This document shows positions 8,535 to 15,762 of a stretch of DNA of 19,146 nt, piece after piece. Position numbers and translations under genes: made by a program. Numbering within the stretch: the first letter of the stretch is position 1; each line of letters opens with the position of its first letter. Source of the DNA: a virus; UHGV virus genome UHGV-1607510; one strand, given 5' to 3'. The notes below the pieces were generated by a model. That model worked only from the letters and a program-made list of their open reading frames with translations, searched no databases and was not told the origin of the DNA.

Positions 8535-9251
8535 ATGGAAAATAAAAAATCACTGACGACAGAACAGCTGGAAGACGCTAAGCGGCTTAAGGCTTTGTAT
8601 GAGTCAAAAAAGAAAGAATTGGGAATAACCCAATACTCAATCGCTGATGAACTGGGTATCACCCAAGGAGCGGTAGGGCATTATCTTAATGGCAGAAATG
8701 CGCTAAACGTTGAGGTTGCATCTGGTTTTGCACGATTGTTGCAAGTCTCAATTGCTGATTTTAGCCAGTCAATTGCTGCCAAGGTTGCAGAACAGGCAGA
8801 AAGCCTTAAGAGCGATGCCAACGTAAGGTATGCAGGGGAATACAGAGCAGGAAAGAGGTATCCGGTGTTAAGCAGTATCCAGGCTGGCTCGTGGTGTGAA
8901 GCATGCGAACCATACACCATTAAAGACATAGATGTTTGGCTTGAGTCTGACGCGCATATTCAAGGTAATGCGTTCTGGCTTAAAGTGGAAGGTGATTCAA
9001 TGACGGCACCGGTTGGGTTAAGCATTCCAGAGGGAACATTCGTTCTTTTCGATACCGGAAGGGAGGCAATCAACGGCAGCTTGGTCATAGCAAAACTTTC
9101 TGACTCTAACGAAGCAACATTCAAGAAGCTGATAATCGACGGCGGAAATAAATACCTCAAGGGACTTAATCCTGCATGGCCTCTCGTGCCAATCAATGGA
9201 AACTGCAAGATTATAGGCGTTGCAATTGAGACAAAACTCAGACTGGTTTGA
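8535..9251 (+). CDS. cI: CI prophage repressor (HTH plus S24 LexA-like autopeptidase domain)
   Basis: 238-aa ORF with HTH (ITQYSIADELGITQGAVGHYLNG), Ala-Gly cleavage site (SIQAGSW), catalytic Ser (VEGDSMTAPVG) and Lys (ATFKKLI). Collinear with lambda CI (TQEQLEDARRLKAIYEKKK...). Confidence 0.9.
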   Translation: MENKKSLTTEQLEDAKRLKALYESKKKELGITQYSIADELGITQGAVGHYLNGRNALNVEVASGFARLLQVSIADFSQSIAAKVAEQAESLKSDANVRYAGEYRAGKRYPVLSSIQAGSWCEACEPYTIKDIDVWLESDAHIQGNAFWLKVEGDSMTAPVGLSIPEGTFVLFDTGREAINGSLVIAKLSDSNEATFKKLIIDGGNKYLKGLNPAWPLVPINGNCKIIGVAIETKLRLV

Positions 9252-9268
9252 TCACGCAAGGGGCGAAT

Positions 9269-9637
9269 ATGGTTGGAACCGCTATAGCAAGCTTTTTAGG
9301 GATGTTGGCAATATCGACAATTTACTGCTTAGCGCATGCTTTTATTGCGAAATCTCTATCAGAAAAAATAAGCCAGGCTTGGGCGCATAGATCAGCTCGT
9401 TTCATGATTCTGGTGATCATAGCAATACAAGGGATATCTGCATTTATCCTCTATGGATCAAGCTTATACCTATTGTATCAAGGCGCGACATTTACGCCTT
9501 ACACCAGTGATTACGGAACCCTATACGATGGTAGTGAAGACATCTCTATGGCTTGGATCGTCTTTGGTTTATCTATGGCCGTGTCTGTTGTAGCAGACAT
9601 CATTAAGGTAATTCTCGTCTTAACCTTCGCTGACTAA
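9269..9637 (+). CDS. Small integral membrane protein (122 aa, 3 predicted TM helices) downstream of cI
   Basis: ATG 9269 with AAGGGG RBS (5-nt spacer), 17 nt after the cI stop. Hydrophobic segments VGTAIASFLGMLAISTIYCLAHAFIA, FMILVIIAIQGISAFILYGSSLYLLY and AWIVFGLSMAVSVVADIIKVILVLTF. The track start (TTG at 9248) overlaps the cI stop and is less likely. Confidence 0.6.
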   Translation: MVGTAIASFLGMLAISTIYCLAHAFIAKSLSEKISQAWAHRSARFMILVIIAIQGISAFILYGSSLYLLYQGATFTPYTSDYGTLYDGSEDISMAWIVFGLSMAVSVVADIIKVILVLTFAD

Positions 9638-10005: not shown

Positions 10006-10278
10006 ATGACAGTAGTCATTACATATCTGGCTGACGATAACGCCAGAAATCGCCGCAGAGCACGCAGACAGGCTCAACGTGAACAGGCAATGCAAGAACA
10101 GCGACTGGCGCGAAAGATTGCGCTAAAGCTCTCTGGTTGCGTCAGAGCAGATAAAGCAGCATCACTCGGAAGCCTTCGCTGCAAGAAGGCAGATGAATGC
10201 AGTGGAAGTATTTGCCTGCCAAACGTAGCCATTTACGCGGCAGGCTACCGGAAATCAAAACAACTGACAGCCAGGTAA
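10006..10278 (+). CDS. N-like transcription antiterminator (P22 gene 24 type)
   Basis: 90-aa ORF with GGAGG RBS and an N-terminal arginine-rich motif (NARNRRRARRQAQREQ). First gene after PL-nutL. The C-terminus VAIYAAGYRKSKQLTAR resembles P22 gp24 as recalled. Confidence 0.75.
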   Translation: MTVVITYLADDNARNRRRARRQAQREQAMQEQRLARKIALKLSGCVRADKAASLGSLRCKKADECSGSICLPNVAIYAAGYRKSKQLTAR

Positions 10279-10281
10279 GTG

Positions 10282-10506
10282 ATGAATCAGACATACATTC
10301 CATCATGCTTGAGAAATCTGCCAAAGCAGAAAGCAAAGCCCCGCAAGCAAGCCATAAAGGACGCTAAGGCAGAGGTTATTGATCAAGCAATACAATTGCT
10401 CAGGGAGGAGTTAAGAAGTGGCAAGCTCGAAGGAATGATGATGCCCTATCAGCGCGGATATCTATCGGCGATTAGTAAGTTGGAAGTATTGAAGAGTGAA
10501 TTATGA
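10282..10506 (+). CDS. Hypothetical small helical, Lys-rich protein (74 aa)
   Basis: ATG 10282 directly after the N stop. Product MNQTYIPSCLRNLPKQKAKPRKQAIKDAKAEVIDQAIQLLREELRSGKLEGMMMPYQRGYLSAISKLEVLKSEL. Stop overlaps the next start (ATGA). Confidence 0.5.
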   Translation: MNQTYIPSCLRNLPKQKAKPRKQAIKDAKAEVIDQAIQLLREELRSGKLEGMMMPYQRGYLSAISKLEVLKSEL

Positions 10507-11039
10507 ACTATCTGGAATTTCCGGATGGTTCATTGTTTTGGCAGCAAACCACTTATTTGAGGCGAGATATGAGAAAATCATGGAACGTACCTTTTCCTGA
10601 ATCAGAAACTGAACATGATGGAATGCCTGTTTTCTGGAGATTCCAGGCGACAGTTGAAGAAGATGGAATCAAAATATTCGCACTTCAATATATAGCTTTT
10701 CATCAGACAGAGCATTATGCATGGTTGGTTCCTGCGCATTGGATTGTTGATTTTAAACCAGCACCAAATCAGTGGTTACGGGAATGGAAACAAAGGATAA
10801 ATAGATATGCAATTAAGAAAGTAGCAAAAAATGCAGAAAGATCTTTTGCATTCCCAACGAAGAAACTTGCCATTGAGAGCTTATTGCGCCGGAAGAAATA
10901 CCATTTAATAAGAATCAAACAAGATTTGGCTGTTGTATCAACTCTTGTTGATGGGATGAAGAATATTGATACATCAACACCAGATATTGAATATAATTTT
11001 GGACACAACCAAGAAACAGAAAATTGGGTATTCTACTAG
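10503..11039 (+). CDS. Hypothetical protein (178 aa), AT-rich gene
   Basis: ORF MNYLEFPDGSLFWQQTTYLRRDMRKSWNVPFPESETEHDGMPVFWRFQATVEEDGIKIFALQYIAFHQTEHYAWLVPAHW... The 3' half is visibly more AT-rich than the neighbouring phage genes. Followed by an intrinsic terminator. Confidence 0.6.
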   Translation: MNYLEFPDGSLFWQQTTYLRRDMRKSWNVPFPESETEHDGMPVFWRFQATVEEDGIKIFALQYIAFHQTEHYAWLVPAHWIVDFKPAPNQWLREWKQRINRYAIKKVAKNAERSFAFPTKKLAIESLLRRKKYHLIRIKQDLAVVSTLVDGMKNIDTSTPDIEYNFGHNQETENWVFY

Positions 11040-11064
11040 GCCGCATAGTCGGCCTTTATTTTTG
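11038..11064 (+). terminator. Intrinsic terminator after the 178-aa ORF
   Basis: AGGCCG-CATAGT-CGGCCT followed by TTATTTTTGG. Confidence 0.5.
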
Positions 11065-11570: not shown

Positions 11571-11665
11571 GCACTGTGTATTCATTCCAACGAGTGAATA
11601 CACGGAGCAATGTCGCTCGTAACTAAACAGGAGCCGACTTGTTCTGATTATTGGAAATCTTCTTT

Positions 11666-11693
11666 GCCCTCCAATGTGAGGGCAGTTTTTTTT
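11666..11693 (+). terminator. Intrinsic terminator immediately upstream of the coiled-coil gene
   Basis: GCCCTC-CAATGT-GAGGGC followed by AGTTTTTTTT. It ends 13 nt before the GGAGG RBS of the next gene. Confidence 0.6.
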
Positions 11694-11705
11694 GACGGAG
11701 GATAT

Positions 11706-12674
11706 ATGAGTGAAGTAACAGATTTAGTTGTTATTGAAAAAGCAAATGCAATGACTGTATTTCAGTCTGCCGACCAGATTGAAGAAATTCTCCAAAAGGT
11801 TGAACGTGAAGTTATGTCCTTTGTGCCTGATATCACAACGGCAAAGGGCAGAAAGGAGATCGCTTCTCTGGCGTATAAAGTTGCGCAGACGAAAACATAT
11901 CTCGATGGTCTTGGCAAAGACCTTGTTGCTGAACTGAAGGAAATTCCAAAGCTAATTGATGCCAACCGCAAGACAGTGCGTGATCGCCTTGATGAGCTGA
12001 AAGCCAAGGCACGCCAGCCTCTTACTGATTATGAGGAAGAACAGGCGCGGATTAAAGCCGAAGAAGAAGCTAAGGCAGCAGCTGAAGCTCTCGCAAAGCA
12101 AATTGAGTCTGACCATGAAATAGCGATTTTGATGGATCGAGAATTTGACCGCCAAAGAGAAGAGACAAGACTCAAAGCGGAGCAGGAAAAGCGAGAGCAT
12201 GAAGAACGCTTAAAAAGAGAAGCTGAAGAGAAAGCCAGAGCTGAAGCCGAAGCAAAGGCAAAAGCCGAAATTGAAGCAGCAGCAAGGCGAGAAGCAGAAG
12301 CTAAGGCAGCAGCGGAACGTGCAGAGCGTGAACGCATTGAAGCCGAGCAACGAGCACAGCGCGAAGCAAAAGAGGCAGCAGAACGAGCTGAAAGAGAAAA
12401 GCAGGCGGCAATTGAAGCAGAACGCAGAAAAGCACAGGAGGAGGCTGAACGAATCCGTCGCGAGGCTGAAGCAAAAGAGCAAGCCAGAATAGCAGAAGAA
12501 AAAAGAATCAAGGACGAAGAAGAGCGTAGAGCAAAGGATAAAGCTCACCGGAAAGAAGTAAATAACAAAATACTTGCTGACCTTATCAAGGTTGGCGCAT
12601 CAGAAGATGTTGCTAAAAATATCATAACAGCCATCGTAAAAGGCGAAGTATTCGCAACAAAAATAACCTACTAA
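11706..12674 (+). CDS. Coiled-coil protein with a long Glu/Ala/Lys/Arg-rich low-complexity repeat region (322 aa)
   Basis: ATG 11706 with GGAGG RBS. The track start at 11610 reads through the upstream terminator and is rejected. N-terminal globular part (MSEVTDLVVIEKANAMTVFQSADQIEEILQKVEREV...), then about 150 aa of EAEAKAKAE/AERAERE-type repeats, then a C-terminal tail. Confidence 0.65.
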   Translation: MSEVTDLVVIEKANAMTVFQSADQIEEILQKVEREVMSFVPDITTAKGRKEIASLAYKVAQTKTYLDGLGKDLVAELKEIPKLIDANRKTVRDRLDELKAKARQPLTDYEEEQARIKAEEEAKAAAEALAKQIESDHEIAILMDREFDRQREETRLKAEQEKREHEERLKREAEEKARAEAEAKAKAEIEAAARREAEAKAAAERAERERIEAEQRAQREAKEAAERAEREKQAAIEAERRKAQEEAERIRREAEAKEQARIAEEKRIKDEEERRAKDKAHRKEVNNKILADLIKVGASEDVAKNIITAIVKGEVFATKITY

Positions 12675-12698: not shown

Positions 12699-12830
12699 AT
12701 GATTTACGCAATCGCGGGAGGCGCTCGCATGGGTGCCTTCCAACTAAATGAATCTTTACTTGAACGAATCACCCGTAAATTACGTGACGGATGGAAAAGA
12801 GTTGAGGTCTTATTATGCGCAATGAAATAG
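12699..12830 (+). CDS. cIII: CIII (FtsH-inhibitor) homologue
   Basis: Not in the track (43 aa). ATG 12699 with AAGGA RBS. Product MIYAIAGGARMGAFQLNESLLERITRKLRDGWKRVEVLLCAMK. The central region matches lambda CIII (ESLLERITRKLRDGWKRL) by recall. Confidence 0.7.
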   Translation: MIYAIAGGARMGAFQLNESLLERITRKLRDGWKRVEVLLCAMK

Positions 12831-12966
12831 CCATCAATCACCAGATGCTTCGTGCAGCACAGAACAAAGCAGTAATAGCCAGATTTATTGGTGATTCAAA
12901 AATGTGGATTGAAGCAAATAAAGCGATGAAATCAGCTATCAACCTTCCGTGGTATCGCAGGAAATG
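12814..12966 (+). CDS. Kil-like small protein (putative host division inhibitor)
   Basis: 50-aa ORF overlapping the cIII 3' end by 17 nt, with GAGG RBS. Product MRNEIAINHQMLRAAQNKAVIARFIGDSKMWIEANKAMKSAINLPWYRRK. The Kil assignment rests on position after cIII and a loosely remembered IATFIGDEKM-type motif. Confidence 0.45.
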
Positions 12967-13134
12967 AGTTTTACAGATAACTGGTCAGACGAAGAATTCA
13001 TTCGTCAGATGAAAGAATTAATCGGTAACGAAGGAGATATTCATGTCACTTGCAACCACAGTGAAGGAGAGCAAGTTACAGAGACGCATGTACACGCAGC
13101 AGGCGTTAATGTATCGCCAGAAGGGAGATCGTGA
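12963..13134 (+). CDS. Hypothetical small acidic protein (56 aa); Arf-like by position only
   Basis: ATG 12963 overlapping the previous stop (ATGA). Product MSFTDNWSDEEFIRQMKELIGNEGDIHVTCNHSEGEQVTETHVHAAGVNVSPEGRS. The track ORF starts upstream at 12949. Confidence 0.35.
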
Positions 13135-13221
13135 AGGTGTTCGCGTATTTTTAAATGCGGCAAAGACTGAAGTATTAAATCAGCGTTATTTCCTTGGGCC
13201 ATGTCCATTCTGAGGTGAATT

Positions 13222-13929
13222 ATGGATTTGAATAAATTCGATGAGCCATTCAGCCCTGAAGATATCGAATGGCGAATACAGCAAAGCGGTAAAACACGCG
13301 ATGGAAAGGTGTGGGCTATGGTGCTGGCTTATGTCACGAACAGGGCAATCATGAAACGCCTGGACGATGTTTGCGGCAAAGCAGGATGGCGCAATGAATA
13401 CCGCGATATTCCCAACAACGGAGGCGTTGAATGCGGCATATCAATCAGGATTGATTCCGAATGGGTAACCAAATGGGATGCTGCTGAAAACACGCAGGTA
13501 GAAGCCGTAAAAGGTGGTCGTTCCGGTGCAATGAAGCGCGCTGCCGTTCAGTGGGGAATCGGTCGGTATCTGTATAACATTGAGGAAGGTTTCGCACAAA
13601 CATCTCTCGATAAAAAGCAGGGATGGCACAGGGCAAAACTCAAGGATGGAACAGGATTTTACTGGCTCCCTCCATCGCTGCCGGGATGGGCAATCCCAGC
13701 ATCAGATAACAAACCATCACCAGAAAATACCAACCAGAAATCTCCATCGGTTGACTGCGAGCAAATCCTGAAAGACTTCAGCGATTATGCGTCAACAGAA
13801 ACTGACAAGAAAAAACTCATCGAGCGTTATCAGCGTGACTGGCAATTAATGGCTGGCAACGAGGAGGCGCAGGCTAAATGCGTTCAGGTAATGAACATCA
13901 GAGTTAACGAACTAAAACAGGCGGCATAA
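13222..13929 (+). CDS. Single-strand annealing protein (Rad52/Erf-type recombinase)
   Basis: 235-aa ORF with GAGGTG RBS. The core VEAVKGGRSGAMKRAAVQWGIGRYLYN resembles the conserved Rad52/Sak/Erf annealing-domain signature. Immediately followed by SSB. C-terminal tail ...TETDKKKLIERYQRDWQLMAGNEEAQAKCVQVMNIRVNELKQAA. Confidence 0.7.
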   Translation: MDLNKFDEPFSPEDIEWRIQQSGKTRDGKVWAMVLAYVTNRAIMKRLDDVCGKAGWRNEYRDIPNNGGVECGISIRIDSEWVTKWDAAENTQVEAVKGGRSGAMKRAAVQWGIGRYLYNIEEGFAQTSLDKKQGWHRAKLKDGTGFYWLPPSLPGWAIPASDNKPSPENTNQKSPSVDCEQILKDFSDYASTETDKKKLIERYQRDWQLMAGNEEAQAKCVQVMNIRVNELKQAA

Positions 13930-14403
13930 ATGGCAAGCAGAGGCGTAAATAAGGTGATCATTATTGGTCGCCTTGGGCATGATCCAGAAATCAGATATTC
14001 ACCATCAGGAACGGCATTTGCAAACCTTACCGTTGCTACGTCAGAACAATGGCGTGATAAGAAAACTGGAGAGCAAAAGGAGCAGACGGAGTGGCACCGC
14101 GTGGTAATGAGCGGGAAACTGGCAGAAATTGCCAGCGAATATCTGCGAAAAGGCTCTGAGGTTTATCTTGAAGGCAAATTGCGGACAAGAAAATGGCAGG
14201 ATCAAAGCGGACAGGATCGGTTCACTACCGAAGTCATCGTGGGCGTTGGTGGAACCATGCAAATGCTTGGTGGCAAGCAAGGAGGCAATGAACAGTCTTC
14301 ACCTCAGCGAAATAATGGTCAGCAACAAAGACAGCAACCTCAGCAGCAGGGGAATCACAGCGAACCACCTATGAACTTCGACGATTCGGATATTCCGTTC
14401 TAG
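13930..14403 (+). CDS. ssb: Single-stranded DNA-binding protein (SSB)
   Basis: 157-aa ORF with an OB-fold N-terminus ([44 protein letters not shown]), a Gly/Gln-rich linker and the acidic C-terminal tip DDSDIPF. Confidence 0.9.
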
Positions 14404-14412
14404 GAGCTGAAT

Positions 14413-14892
14413 ATGAAAATCTGCTCAAGATGCCATCAACAGAAGGAAGAAAGGGACTTTCAAATCAGAAGAGCATCCAGAGATGGATTAACTGCCGCTT
14501 GCCGGGCTTGCCTGGCTGAATACGACAAAGAGCGCGCGGGATTGCCACATCGAGTATCAGCAAGGAGAGAATATCAATCATCGGAACGCGGCAGAGAACG
14601 GTGTAACGCAGCCAAAAAGCGGTTCATTCAGAGCAACCCATGGAAAAGAAAAGCCCACATCATCGTGGGTAATTTTTTGCGCGACGGTAAGCTAATCCGA
14701 CCACCACAATGTGAGTGCTGCGGATCAGAATGCAAACCACAGGCGCACCACTGCGACTACAGCAAACCAACCGATGTGATGTGGCTCTGCAAGTCATGTC
14801 ATGTCGAGTGGCACAAACATAACAAACCTATCTACCCAGACGAGGAGCCAGTAACTCTCCCCTTCCCTCGTCACGCTATTCACGCAATTTAA
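14413..14892 (+). CDS. Cys-rich zinc-finger protein with an HNH-like C-terminal motif
   Basis: 159-aa ORF with CxxC pairs (CSRCH, CRAC, CECCGSEC, CKSCH) and QAHHCDYSKPTDVMWLCKSCHVEWHKHN, resembling the HNH nuclease beta-beta-alpha-metal motif. Confidence 0.55.
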   Translation: MKICSRCHQQKEERDFQIRRASRDGLTAACRACLAEYDKERAGLPHRVSARREYQSSERGRERCNAAKKRFIQSNPWKRKAHIIVGNFLRDGKLIRPPQCECCGSECKPQAHHCDYSKPTDVMWLCKSCHVEWHKHNKPIYPDEEPVTLPFPRHAIHAI

Positions 14893-14900
14893 GGACTTAC

Positions 14901-15449
14901 ATGAATCACTTGATGGTTGACCTTGAAACAATGGGCAACGGGCCATACGCGCCAGTTATTTCTATTGGGGCGGTATTCTTTGACCCGAATACCGGAGAAA
15001 CAGGAGAAGAGTTCTCGGTAAATATCTCGCTTGAATCATCAATGCGATATCGAGCGCGTCCTGACGCTTCAACGATTTTATGGTGGCTGGAACAGAGTGA
15101 AGAAGCCAGGAAATCGCTAACCAGCAACACTCAGGAGCTTTCAACGGCTCTTTCATGGTTATCTGAATTCATCATAAAGAACGCTAACCACAAATTCGTT
15201 CAGGTTTGGGGGAATGGAGCATCATTTGACTGCGTTATTCTCCGCAACAGTTATTCGCTGACAGGGCAGCCAGTTCCGTGGCAGTGGTGGAATGACCGCG
15301 ACGTAAGAACAATCGTCGAACTTGGGAAGGCAATAGGATTCGACCCTAAGCGAGATATGCCATTCAAAGGAACTCGCCACAACGCTCTTGATGATGCCAT
15401 TCACCAAGCCAAATACGTTTCAGCGATCTGGAAAAAGTTAGCTAAATAA
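14901..15449 (+). CDS. DEDDh-family 3'-5' exonuclease (DnaQ-like)
   Basis: 182-aa ORF with Exo I (MVDLETMG), Exo II (WGNGASFDCVIL) and Exo III (HNALDDAIHQAKY) motifs. Confidence 0.75.
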   Translation: MNHLMVDLETMGNGPYAPVISIGAVFFDPNTGETGEEFSVNISLESSMRYRARPDASTILWWLEQSEEARKSLTSNTQELSTALSWLSEFIIKNANHKFVQVWGNGASFDCVILRNSYSLTGQPVPWQWWNDRDVRTIVELGKAIGFDPKRDMPFKGTRHNALDDAIHQAKYVSAIWKKLAK

Positions 15450-15465: not shown

Positions 15466-15762
15466 ATGCCAGCGCCTCTGTATGGTGCGGATGACCCGCG
15501 CCGCTGTTCCGGCAATTCCGTATCGGAGGTGCTGGATAAATTCAGAAAAAACTACGATCGGATAATGTCGCTACCGCAGGAAACGAAAGAGGAAAAGGAA
15601 TTTCGCCACTGTATATGGCTTGCAGAGAAAGAAGAACGCGAGCGAATTTACCAGACATCAATCCGACCATTCCGCAAAGCCACATATACCCACTTCCCTG
15701 AATATATCGACCCGCGCCTGCGTAATTACCGCTCACGCTATGGCGCTATCAGTAATGACTGA
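15466..15762 (+). CDS. Hypothetical protein (98 aa)
   Basis: ATG with AGGAGA RBS. Product MPAPLYGADDPRRCSGNSVSEVLDKFRKNYDRIMSLPQETKEEKEFRHCIWLAEKEERERIYQ... Confidence 0.5.
   Translation: MPAPLYGADDPRRCSGNSVSEVLDKFRKNYDRIMSLPQETKEEKEFRHCIWLAEKEERERIYQTSIRPFRKATYTHFPEYIDPRLRNYRSRYGAISND

Follow-up and report, generated by a model that had tools for sequence, protein, structure and literature searches.

The window analysed here is a 19,146-nucleotide (nt) stretch of the virus genome UHGV-1607510, and the gene under study occupies positions 11706-12674 of its plus strand, from an ATG at 11706 to a stop codon at 12672-12674. Its 322-residue product belongs to the family of phage phi80 Agt (Mog) and phage Sf6 gp33, an assignment that sequence comparison makes secure. 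The feature first noticed in it, in an original prediction made from the DNA letters alone, is a long, charged helical spacer. It joins two conserved ends, of which the N-terminal one is an extended helical domain and the C-terminal one is small. The gene and its spacer are real and were correctly described, but they are neither rare nor without a named relative. We propose that the protein, rod-like and without enzymatic activity, assists the module that serves the phage in RecA-independent recombination and in countering nucleases, a reading that we regard as evenly balanced between right and wrong.

Membership in the phi80 Agt/Mog and Sf6 gp33 family

The protein is 99.7% identical to the Sf6 gene 33 protein (AAQ12223.1), and it aligns with phi80 Agt over the full length (51% identity, E = 9e-65), both proteins having 322 residues. 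Each end supports the relationship separately: residues 1-113 alone match Agt residues 1-113 at 40% identity (BLASTP, E = 3e-24), and a 60-member profile of the C-terminal domain matches the Agt C terminus in hhalign with a probability of 98.8% (E = 5e-17). The phi80 RefSeq record describes agt (YP_007947961.1) as an "anti-toxin for Gam", with the note "Mog (modifier of Gam)", and the gene directly 3' of it, gamL, as a "gam-like host nuclease inhibitor; toxic without Mog"; rec and exo follow. The function of the window protein had been called unknown, which holds only in part now that a homologue carries these annotations. In phi80, GamL is reportedly toxic and inhibits both RecBCD and SbcCD, Agt is said to be its "antidote" and apparently its modifier, and lysogens are said to be phenocopies of recD and sbcCD mutants.

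The family is very large. When 1.84 billion representative proteins were screened with a profile of the N-terminal domain, 5773 clusters (at 50% identity) scored E <= 1e-3 or better, 2335 of them E <= 1e-30, and most are 300-390 residues long. PHROG 1376, of unknown function, spans the whole protein (E = 2e-110), and PHROGs 17211 and 21365 hold the N- and C-terminal parts separately. These two, together with the 116-residue BFVD entry A5VWA2, exist because an insertion splits the gene in phage CUS-3, as described below. Searches with the window protein against Pfam, NCBIfam and PADLOC gave no match, and no Pfam family was found in 43 diverse family members (hmmscan, E <= 1). With structures the outcome was similar: the window protein drew only compositional matches from PDB sequences, such as Zuotin, Foldseek against BFVD returned family members only, and the profile of the N-terminal domain found nothing in the PDB. 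By these searches the protein was assigned to no known structural family, and here the first description needs no change. The C-terminal domain gave a weak lead: its profile repeatedly met RuvA domain III and UBA domains in the PDB at non-significant values (E 0.1-1.7), and at E <= 10 in Pfam the C-terminal domains met scattered small helical domains, RuvA_C in 2 of 60 members. A likeness to RuvA domain III or UBA may be followed up as a lead only.

Family members are deposited as "TolA protein", "cell envelope biogenesis protein", "fibrinogen binding protein", "ribosome recycling factor", "putative tail-fiber protein" and "antitoxin protein". Judged by homology, the database names for the gene 33 family are wrong, and the family belongs with phi80 Agt/Mog. 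A literature search found no functional study of Sf6 gene 33. What may be new is the family-wide picture, namely the size of the family, its three parts with a single-helix-like spacer, its modular ends and the way nearly every locus links it to recombination genes, which belong to several families unrelated to one another.

Start site and three-part architecture

In the mechanical list of open reading frames (ORFs), the reading frame opens earlier, at ATG 11610, which would give a product of 354 residues. This start was rejected because the extension spans a terminator and a 125-bp block that is nearly identical upstream of the unrelated lambda gene ea10, and because homologues in other genera share an N-terminal start of the form MSE(V/T)TDLVVIE. 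The start at 11706 is therefore secure and no alternative is supported; the ORF is also intact in nearly all relatives, the exception being CUS-3 with its 1-nt frameshift. On both counts the gene model first put forward stands.

The charged tract comprises residues 111-281 (nt 12036-12548) and contains 28% E, 25% A, 16% R and 10.5% K. It had been put at about 150 residues of near-pure repeats. The tract exists and has the stated bias toward E, A, R and K, but it is longer, at about 170 residues, and lacks clean repetition: Tandem Repeats Finder reports weak period-6 and period-15 arrays with 61-87% matches. It is a compositionally biased, quasi-repetitive segment rather than a true tandem repeat. 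Its DNA is low in complexity and rich in purines, as predicted, with a purine fraction of 72%, the highest anywhere in the window. Antisense ORFs of 160, 112 and 82 residues and a 73-residue ORF in another sense-strand frame overlap the tract, and since their translations are low in complexity the antisense ORFs were rightly dismissed as spurious.

An N-terminal domain, a tract rich in E, A, K, R, Q or D, and a C-terminal domain are common to family members. The N-terminal domain carries the motif VPDxTTxKGRxxIASxAxKV...K..LD..GK.L...ID..R...R..LD.L....R.PLT.WE, and its AlphaFold2 (AF2) model (pLDDT, the predicted local distance difference test, of 91) has two short helices packed against the start of one long helix. 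About ten Lys/Arg positions are near-invariant in this domain, whose net charge is -2. The C-terminal domain has about 45 residues in the family and the consensus HRxxINxxAxxxLxxxGxxxxxAKxxxxAIAxGxIPxVxIxY. The last residue is aromatic in more than 90% of members, and the window protein, ending in ...KITY, follows the I-x-Y pattern.

Nature of the charged helix

The AF2 monomer model draws residues 69-295 as one helix, with pLDDT above 90 through the tract. The window protein has 0.53 pairs of opposite charges per residue at spacings of i/i+3 and i/i+4, against 0.32 +/- 0.034 in shuffled sequences (z of about 6), and a 3.5-residue periodicity of LIVMFYW residues is absent from the tract, its power lying below the null mean. 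The net charge of the tract is -8 over 171 residues. Because of this salt-bridge enrichment, the missing heptad seam and the near-neutral charge, we conclude that the tract bears the signatures of an ER/K-type single alpha-helix rather than those of a DNA mimic, a role rejected on its charge. Alanine and hydrophobic residues taken together do show a 3.67-residue periodicity (power 1.71, 95% null 0.66). In a set of 97 diverse members, tract length has a median of 135 residues (interquartile range 115-144), and the tract shows averages of 24% Ala, 28% D/E and 25% K/R, a median net charge of -3 and a median salt-bridge z of 3.6. What the family conserves in this part is length and composition, not sequence.

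Distribution and alleles

Such a spacer had been thought unusual for an early-left lambdoid gene. This did not hold up: sequenced lambdoid and P22-like phages that carry the gene number at least 35, its N-terminal domain is found as DNA in 508 of 5426 complete Escherichia coli genomes (about 9%), and more than 5700 clusters share the architecture. The DNA of the region is 98-99% identical in Sf6, HK544, HK633, mEp043, mEp213, mEp234, IME10, Sf101, CUS-3 and several Stx1a phages, whose records assign the gene no function. Among the named matches of the N-terminal domain query, most are labelled "partial", and all of those listed are 68-212 residues long. This suggests that the purine-rich tract often breaks short-read assemblies, although the choice of candidates by the search may explain some of these labels.

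A comparison of repeat length among relatives had been suggested, and it was informative. The 322-residue form predominates in E. coli, where in-frame variants of 245, 275, 290, 300, 306 and 333 residues also occur, with all insertions and deletions (indels) inside the tract. Alleles from Enterobacter, Cronobacter, Citrobacter and Salmonella are exactly 322 residues long with zero indels; their tracts are about 64% identical and their end domains mostly 90-95% (85-96% overall). Since 322 residues are kept without an indel despite the low identity of the tract, its length appears to be constrained. Other alleles have exchanged one end only. In P0197 and P0198 the C-terminal domain alone is swapped (24% identity, against 91% in the N-terminal domain), and in P0199 the N-terminal domain alone (59%, against 88% in the C-terminal domain). 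From such one-sided exchanges, sequence comparison identifies the low-complexity tract as a recombination joint between two independent modules.

In CUS-3 (locus L075, 750-842) a single T is inserted after GAAGAA at about codon 112 (about 12041 in the window), leaving ORFs of 116 and 214 residues; the split may be a real pseudogene or a sequencing error. Near-identical copies of one allele in E. coli phages are paired with a Rad52-like protein and SSB (the window and Sf6), with Erf (mEp213 and Stx1a phages) or with a Bet-like protein (683R2). The allele is therefore not tied to one annealing-protein family, and no link between C-terminal domain subtype and annealing-protein family was seen among the enteric loci.

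Linkage to recombination genes

With one genome taken per species, a scan located 66 loci; they come from the Gamma-, Beta- and Alphaproteobacteria and from a few groups besides. In a Pfam census of the four co-directional downstream ORFs at 29 diverse loci, the ORF immediately downstream encoded ERF at nine, a DUF3799 PD-(D/E)XK protein at two, and lambda Gam, YqaJ and RNase_T at one each; the next three ORFs included SSB (8), YqaJ (8), RecT (6), DUF3799 (3), Sak4-type AAA_24 (1) and RdgC (1). Neighbours were also sought with ad hoc hidden Markov models (HMMs) seeded from the census matches and from lambda and window proteins, at the 51 loci with at least 2.5 kb on both sides. By these models, which merge the ERF and Rad52 families and were cross-checked against Pfam only partly, 49 of the 51 loci have a co-directional gene for an annealing protein, recombination exonuclease or SSB no more than 2.5 kb away, downstream at 38. 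The neighbouring recombination gene is less than 100 nt away in about half of the loci, often with a gap of less than 15 nt.

The linkage persists when the order of genes changes. Alphaproteobacterial loci run gene-DUF3799-RecT. Loci from Aeromonas and Henriciella (L016-L020, L023 and L060/L061) are reversed relative to most others, with the DUF3799 exonuclease and RecT preceding the Agt-family gene, which follows within 0-75 nt (715 nt in L016). Depositors' annotations give the gene, Erf and an exonuclease in Pseudomonas phage D3; the gene, Erf, YqaJ and NinB in Sinorhizobium phage phiLM21; a recombination protein, SSB and the gene in Vibrio BT-1011; the gene, cIII, then Erf and SSB in Edwardsiella GF-2; and the gene, then Erf, in Erwinia Eho49. 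In Pseudomonas phage Ab31, a gap of 7 nt separates ORF39 from the BAS recombineering operon (orf38-37-36) downstream of it. By tblastn, GamL is absent from the 66 related loci except L014, which has the order agt-gamL-recT-exo, and a marginal match in L009, and a lambda-type Gam occurs at one locus, L011, directly downstream of the family member.

Proposed role and alternatives

If the protein is a rod-like accessory of the recombination and anti-nuclease module, it would be made early and solely after N antitermination. It would then be a stiff spacer or adaptor with a different conserved partner bound at each end domain, and the helix of constrained length would hold these apart by about 20 nm (the tract) and up to about 37 nm (the whole predicted helix). 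Through these partners it could tune how phage recombination and anti-nuclease functions engage host DNA-end processing, moderating rather than blocking it. The conserved partner is more likely to be a host DNA-end-processing component or DNA than one phage protein, since most loci lack GamL, the same allele occurs with Rad52-like, Erf or Bet proteins, and the motifs of both ends are conserved across proteobacterial classes.

Several points weigh against this proposal. The count of linked loci depends on the merged and partly cross-checked HMMs mentioned above, and in enteric phages cIII, kil and small ORFs separate the gene from the recombination genes, so that the enteric association could in part be conserved order of the pL operon. 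The protein is dispensable at least in two settings, because BAS recombineering functions without ORF39 (PMC6438905) and because the copy in CUS-3 is frameshifted. GamL is cited in a 2025 survey of lambdoid Rec modules, from which Agt/Mog or a protein of this type is absent (PMC12315714). The tract may be a monomeric single helix or a dimeric coiled coil with an alanine seam (a hendecad), since the 3.67-residue stripe exceeds the shuffle null. Finally, GamL is missing from the window and from nearly all related loci, so the one known genetic activity, taken here from the notes of the phi80 record, cannot be transferred directly from phi80.

An unlikely but serious alternative is a protein dedicated to neutralising or modifying a toxic nuclease inhibitor that the phage itself encodes. 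It would act solely through a phage partner, here Abc2 or one of the small proteins encoded between kil and the annealing gene. The phi80 notes on agt and gamL say as much of their own pair, the agt-gamL-recT-exo locus preserves it, another member sits directly upstream of lambda-type Gam, and the window encodes Abc2. Yet many loci abut ERF, DUF3799 or YqaJ genes with gaps of less than 15 nt and no recognisable inhibitor, and GamL or Gam occurs at only about 3 of the 66. Nor does such a role sit easily with motifs in both end domains that are conserved from Alpha- to Gammaproteobacteria when phage inhibitors are diverse, or with near-identical alleles that accompany different modules.

We think it improbable that the protein serves in host takeover or anti-defence and has no part in recombination, in which case its neighbourhood would mirror nothing but the conserved order of the early operon. 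The gene does occupy the lambdoid ea10 accessory slot, behind a mosaic boundary sequence and among morons and small host-directed genes (ral, cIII, kil), and its dispensability in CUS-3 would fit such a factor. However, tight adjacency to recombination genes persists over varied orders and modules, including the DUF3799-RecT-gene order of Aeromonas, PADLOC found no match, and the genetic link in phi80 is to a nuclease inhibitor.

Improbable too, and slightly more so, is a protein that binds, protects or bridges DNA ends, as an analogue of Mu Gam or Gp157 or as a CtIP-like tether, with basic residues of the N-terminal domain on DNA and the rod bridging the ends. In Firmicutes phages the slot upstream of erf or sak4-ssb is held by Mu-Gam-like, Gp157, DUF1351 and DUF2483 proteins (PMC8093625), Sfi21 orf157 is annotated "Mu Gam-like end protection", and the near-invariant Lys/Arg residues would suit DNA contact. 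The BAS authors also remark that their operon has no RecBCD inhibitor, and adding Red-gamma or Plu-gamma raised its efficiency (PMC6438905). Homology to Gp157 was rejected, hhalign against Sfi21 orf157 giving a probability of 0.2%, and PF05565 (Gp157), PF07352 (Mu Gam) and PF07083 (DUF1351) were not matched in the 43 members scanned with Pfam at E <= 1. Moreover, the net charges of the N-terminal domain and tract do not clearly mark a DNA binder, nor do they fit a DNA mimic, and in several phages the protein occurs together with Gam, GamL or Abc2.

The reading implied by most database records, a cell-envelope protein of the TolA kind, has next to no chance of being right, and the original prediction's "TolA-like", used of the spacer, applies to composition alone: the tract recalls the long Ala/Glu/Lys-rich helix of TolA domain II and the RefSeq name is "cell envelope biogenesis protein TolA", but this likeness is compositional with no homology beyond it, there is no transmembrane segment (highest Kyte-Doolittle 19-residue window 1.03, threshold about 1.6), no TolA model matches in NCBIfam at E <= 1 and none in Pfam, TolA domain III is absent, the N terminus does not resemble a signal peptide, and the operon context is cytoplasmic DNA metabolism.

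A wider version of the rod-like accessory proposal, which we hold to be doubtful, is that the Agt/gp33 family could be a general, unrecognised component of proteobacterial phage recombination modules. In that case its members might serve as rigid adaptors of about 20-37 nm on host RecBCD or on the coiled-coil nuclease SbcCD, independently of GamL, and turn inhibition into a tolerated, recombination-proficient state. If so, adding the cognate member (e.g., Ab31 ORF39) to a recombineering set of single-strand annealing protein (SSAP), Exo and SSB should give better efficiency or less toxicity in non-model bacteria. For the window itself the outcome is mainly a correction of annotation, for a gene found in many phages and in the share of E. 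coli genomes given above. More broadly, a family of this size without a Pfam model is among the most consistent neighbours of annealing proteins, exonucleases and SSB in Alpha-, Beta- and Gammaproteobacteria. Should it modulate host nucleases or recombination machinery, it would bear on the trade-off that temperate phages make between inhibiting nucleases and keeping the host viable, and on the design of portable recombineering systems, which currently do without this protein.

Expression and neighbouring genes

The predicted terminator directly 5' of the gene is present (Table 1). A terminator scan places its hairpin stem at 11664-11685 and a T8 run at 11686-11693, 12 nt and 4 nt, respectively, from the Shine-Dalgarno (SD) sequence, and the RNA fold of 11655-11712 has a minimum free energy of -17.8 kcal/mol (z = -2.7). 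The Sf6 record labels the same hairpin "tL2A", the lambda homologue, and the preceding block a mosaic "boundary sequence". The lambda alignment agrees on both, and for this reason the gene can be placed in the slot of lambda ea10. Homology to lambda Ea10 itself was rejected (BLASTP E = 1.4), the upstream terminator and boundary sequence being all that is shared.

Two terminators separate N from the gene. In lambda, N antitermination allows transcripts from pL to read through terminators, and given the two terminators N-dependent read-through would be the expected route of expression, as the original prediction had it. In the predicted fold, the SD region GGAGGAU (11698-11704) pairs with AUCUUCU (11657-11663), which directly precedes the terminator stem, and lambda has this complementarity too (ATCTTC / GAGGAT), upstream of ea10. 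Through this pairing the ribosome-binding site could be partly sequestered on read-through transcripts.

The genes of the window run co-directionally in the order N, the gene under study, cIII, kil, Rad52-like annealing protein, SSB and Abc2. The annealing protein and SSB are 98-99.6% identical to the products of Sf6 genes 28 and 27. Neither GamL nor lambda Gam has a tblastn match in the window, and by homology Abc2 is the anti-RecBCD function of this phage in their place. Between kil and the annealing gene lie two overlapping small ORFs (12949-13213, plus strand) of 61 and 56 residues, which correspond to Sf6 genes 30 and 29. The 61-residue ORF matches PHROG 2123, "recombinase", and both are candidate partners of the 322-residue protein. 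The recombination module also includes a 159-residue protein (14413-14892, plus strand; PHROG 2340, "endonuclease") with a Lar-like N-terminal region and an Rv2179c-like DEDDh 3'-5' exonuclease domain protein (14901-15449, plus strand; Pfam E = 7e-74). Further upstream, a 129-residue ORF with a TTG start (9248-9637, plus strand; PHROG 6534) begins 4 nt before the end of the cI-like repressor gene (8535-9251), overlapping its stop, and fills the slot of lambda rexA/B and Sf6 gene 38; it has no match in PADLOC.

Table 1. Coordinates of the gene, its parts and neighbouring features in the window
Feature	Position	Strand	Basis or remark
N gene	10006-10278	+	Pfam N_peptide
Second terminator-like hairpin, AGGCCG...CGGCCT and T-run	11038-11055	+	At the stop codon of a 178-residue ORF (10503-11039)
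Boundary sequence, a mosaic junction, non-coding for this protein	11571-11663	+	Nearly identical to lambda upstream of ea10 and to Sf6 bsq4
Rho-independent terminator, lambda tL2a homologue; stem TTGCCCTC/GAGGGCAG, then T8	11664-11693	+	Terminator scan, fold, Sf6 annotation, lambda alignment
Shine-Dalgarno GGAGG	11698-11702	+	Sequence and fold; 3 nt 5' of the ATG
Coding sequence, Sf6 gene 33 / phi80 Agt (Mog) family protein, PHROG 1376	11706-12674	+	Homology to Sf6 gp33 and phi80 Agt
N-terminal conserved helical domain, residues 1-110	11706-12035	+	Alignments, AF2
Charged E/A/R/K helix, residues 111-281	12036-12548	+	Site of in-frame indels and mosaic allele breakpoints
C-terminal mini-domain, residues 282-322	12549-12671	+	Alignments, hhalign
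cIII	12699-12830	+	Directly 3' of the gene
kil	12815-12967	+	After cIII, between the gene and the recombination module
Rad52-like annealing protein	13222-13929	+	Pfam Rad52_Rad22 (E = 2e-25); PHROG 1097
SSB	13930-14403	+	Recombination module core
Abc2 homologue (RecBCD modifier)	15466-15762	+	98% identical to Sf6 gene 25, "RecBC inhibitor; similar to P22 abc2"

Comparison with known systems

The Firmicutes phage proteins of the Gp157, Mu Gam-like, DUF1351 and DUF2483 types are positional analogues of the window protein, with no homology detected, and so is lambda Ea10, which is encoded behind the same tL2a and boundary sequence. In its physical character the tract resembles the ER/K single alpha-helix spacers of proteins such as myosin VI/X and Zuotin, which are likewise rich in E, K and R, have i to i+3/i+4 salt bridges, lack a heptad seam and are predicted as one helix; it differs from them in being unusually rich in alanine (25%) and in its 3.67-residue stripe of alanine and hydrophobic residues.

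Among homologues, ORF39 of Pseudomonas phage Ab31 and Orf53 of D3 share the three-part architecture and are about 52% identical in the N-terminal domain. Unlike the gene in the window, theirs abut an annealing gene (Bet-Exo-SSB in Ab31, Erf-exonuclease in D3), with no cIII or kil between. In phi80 Agt/Mog (phage Lula) both end domains and the tract are homologous, the length is the same, and the gene has the same place in the pL operon upstream of recombination genes. The end domains of the two proteins are, however, only about 40% identical, and the phi80 order N, kil, agt, gamL, rec, exo contrasts with a window that has Abc2, a Rad52-like protein and SSB and lacks gamL or Gam. The closest counterparts are Sf6 gene 33 and its copies in HK544, HK633, mEp043/213/234, IME10, Sf101, CUS-3 and Stx1a phages, which share the terminator, boundary sequence, cIII and kil, and between the Sf6 protein and that of the window there is essentially no difference.

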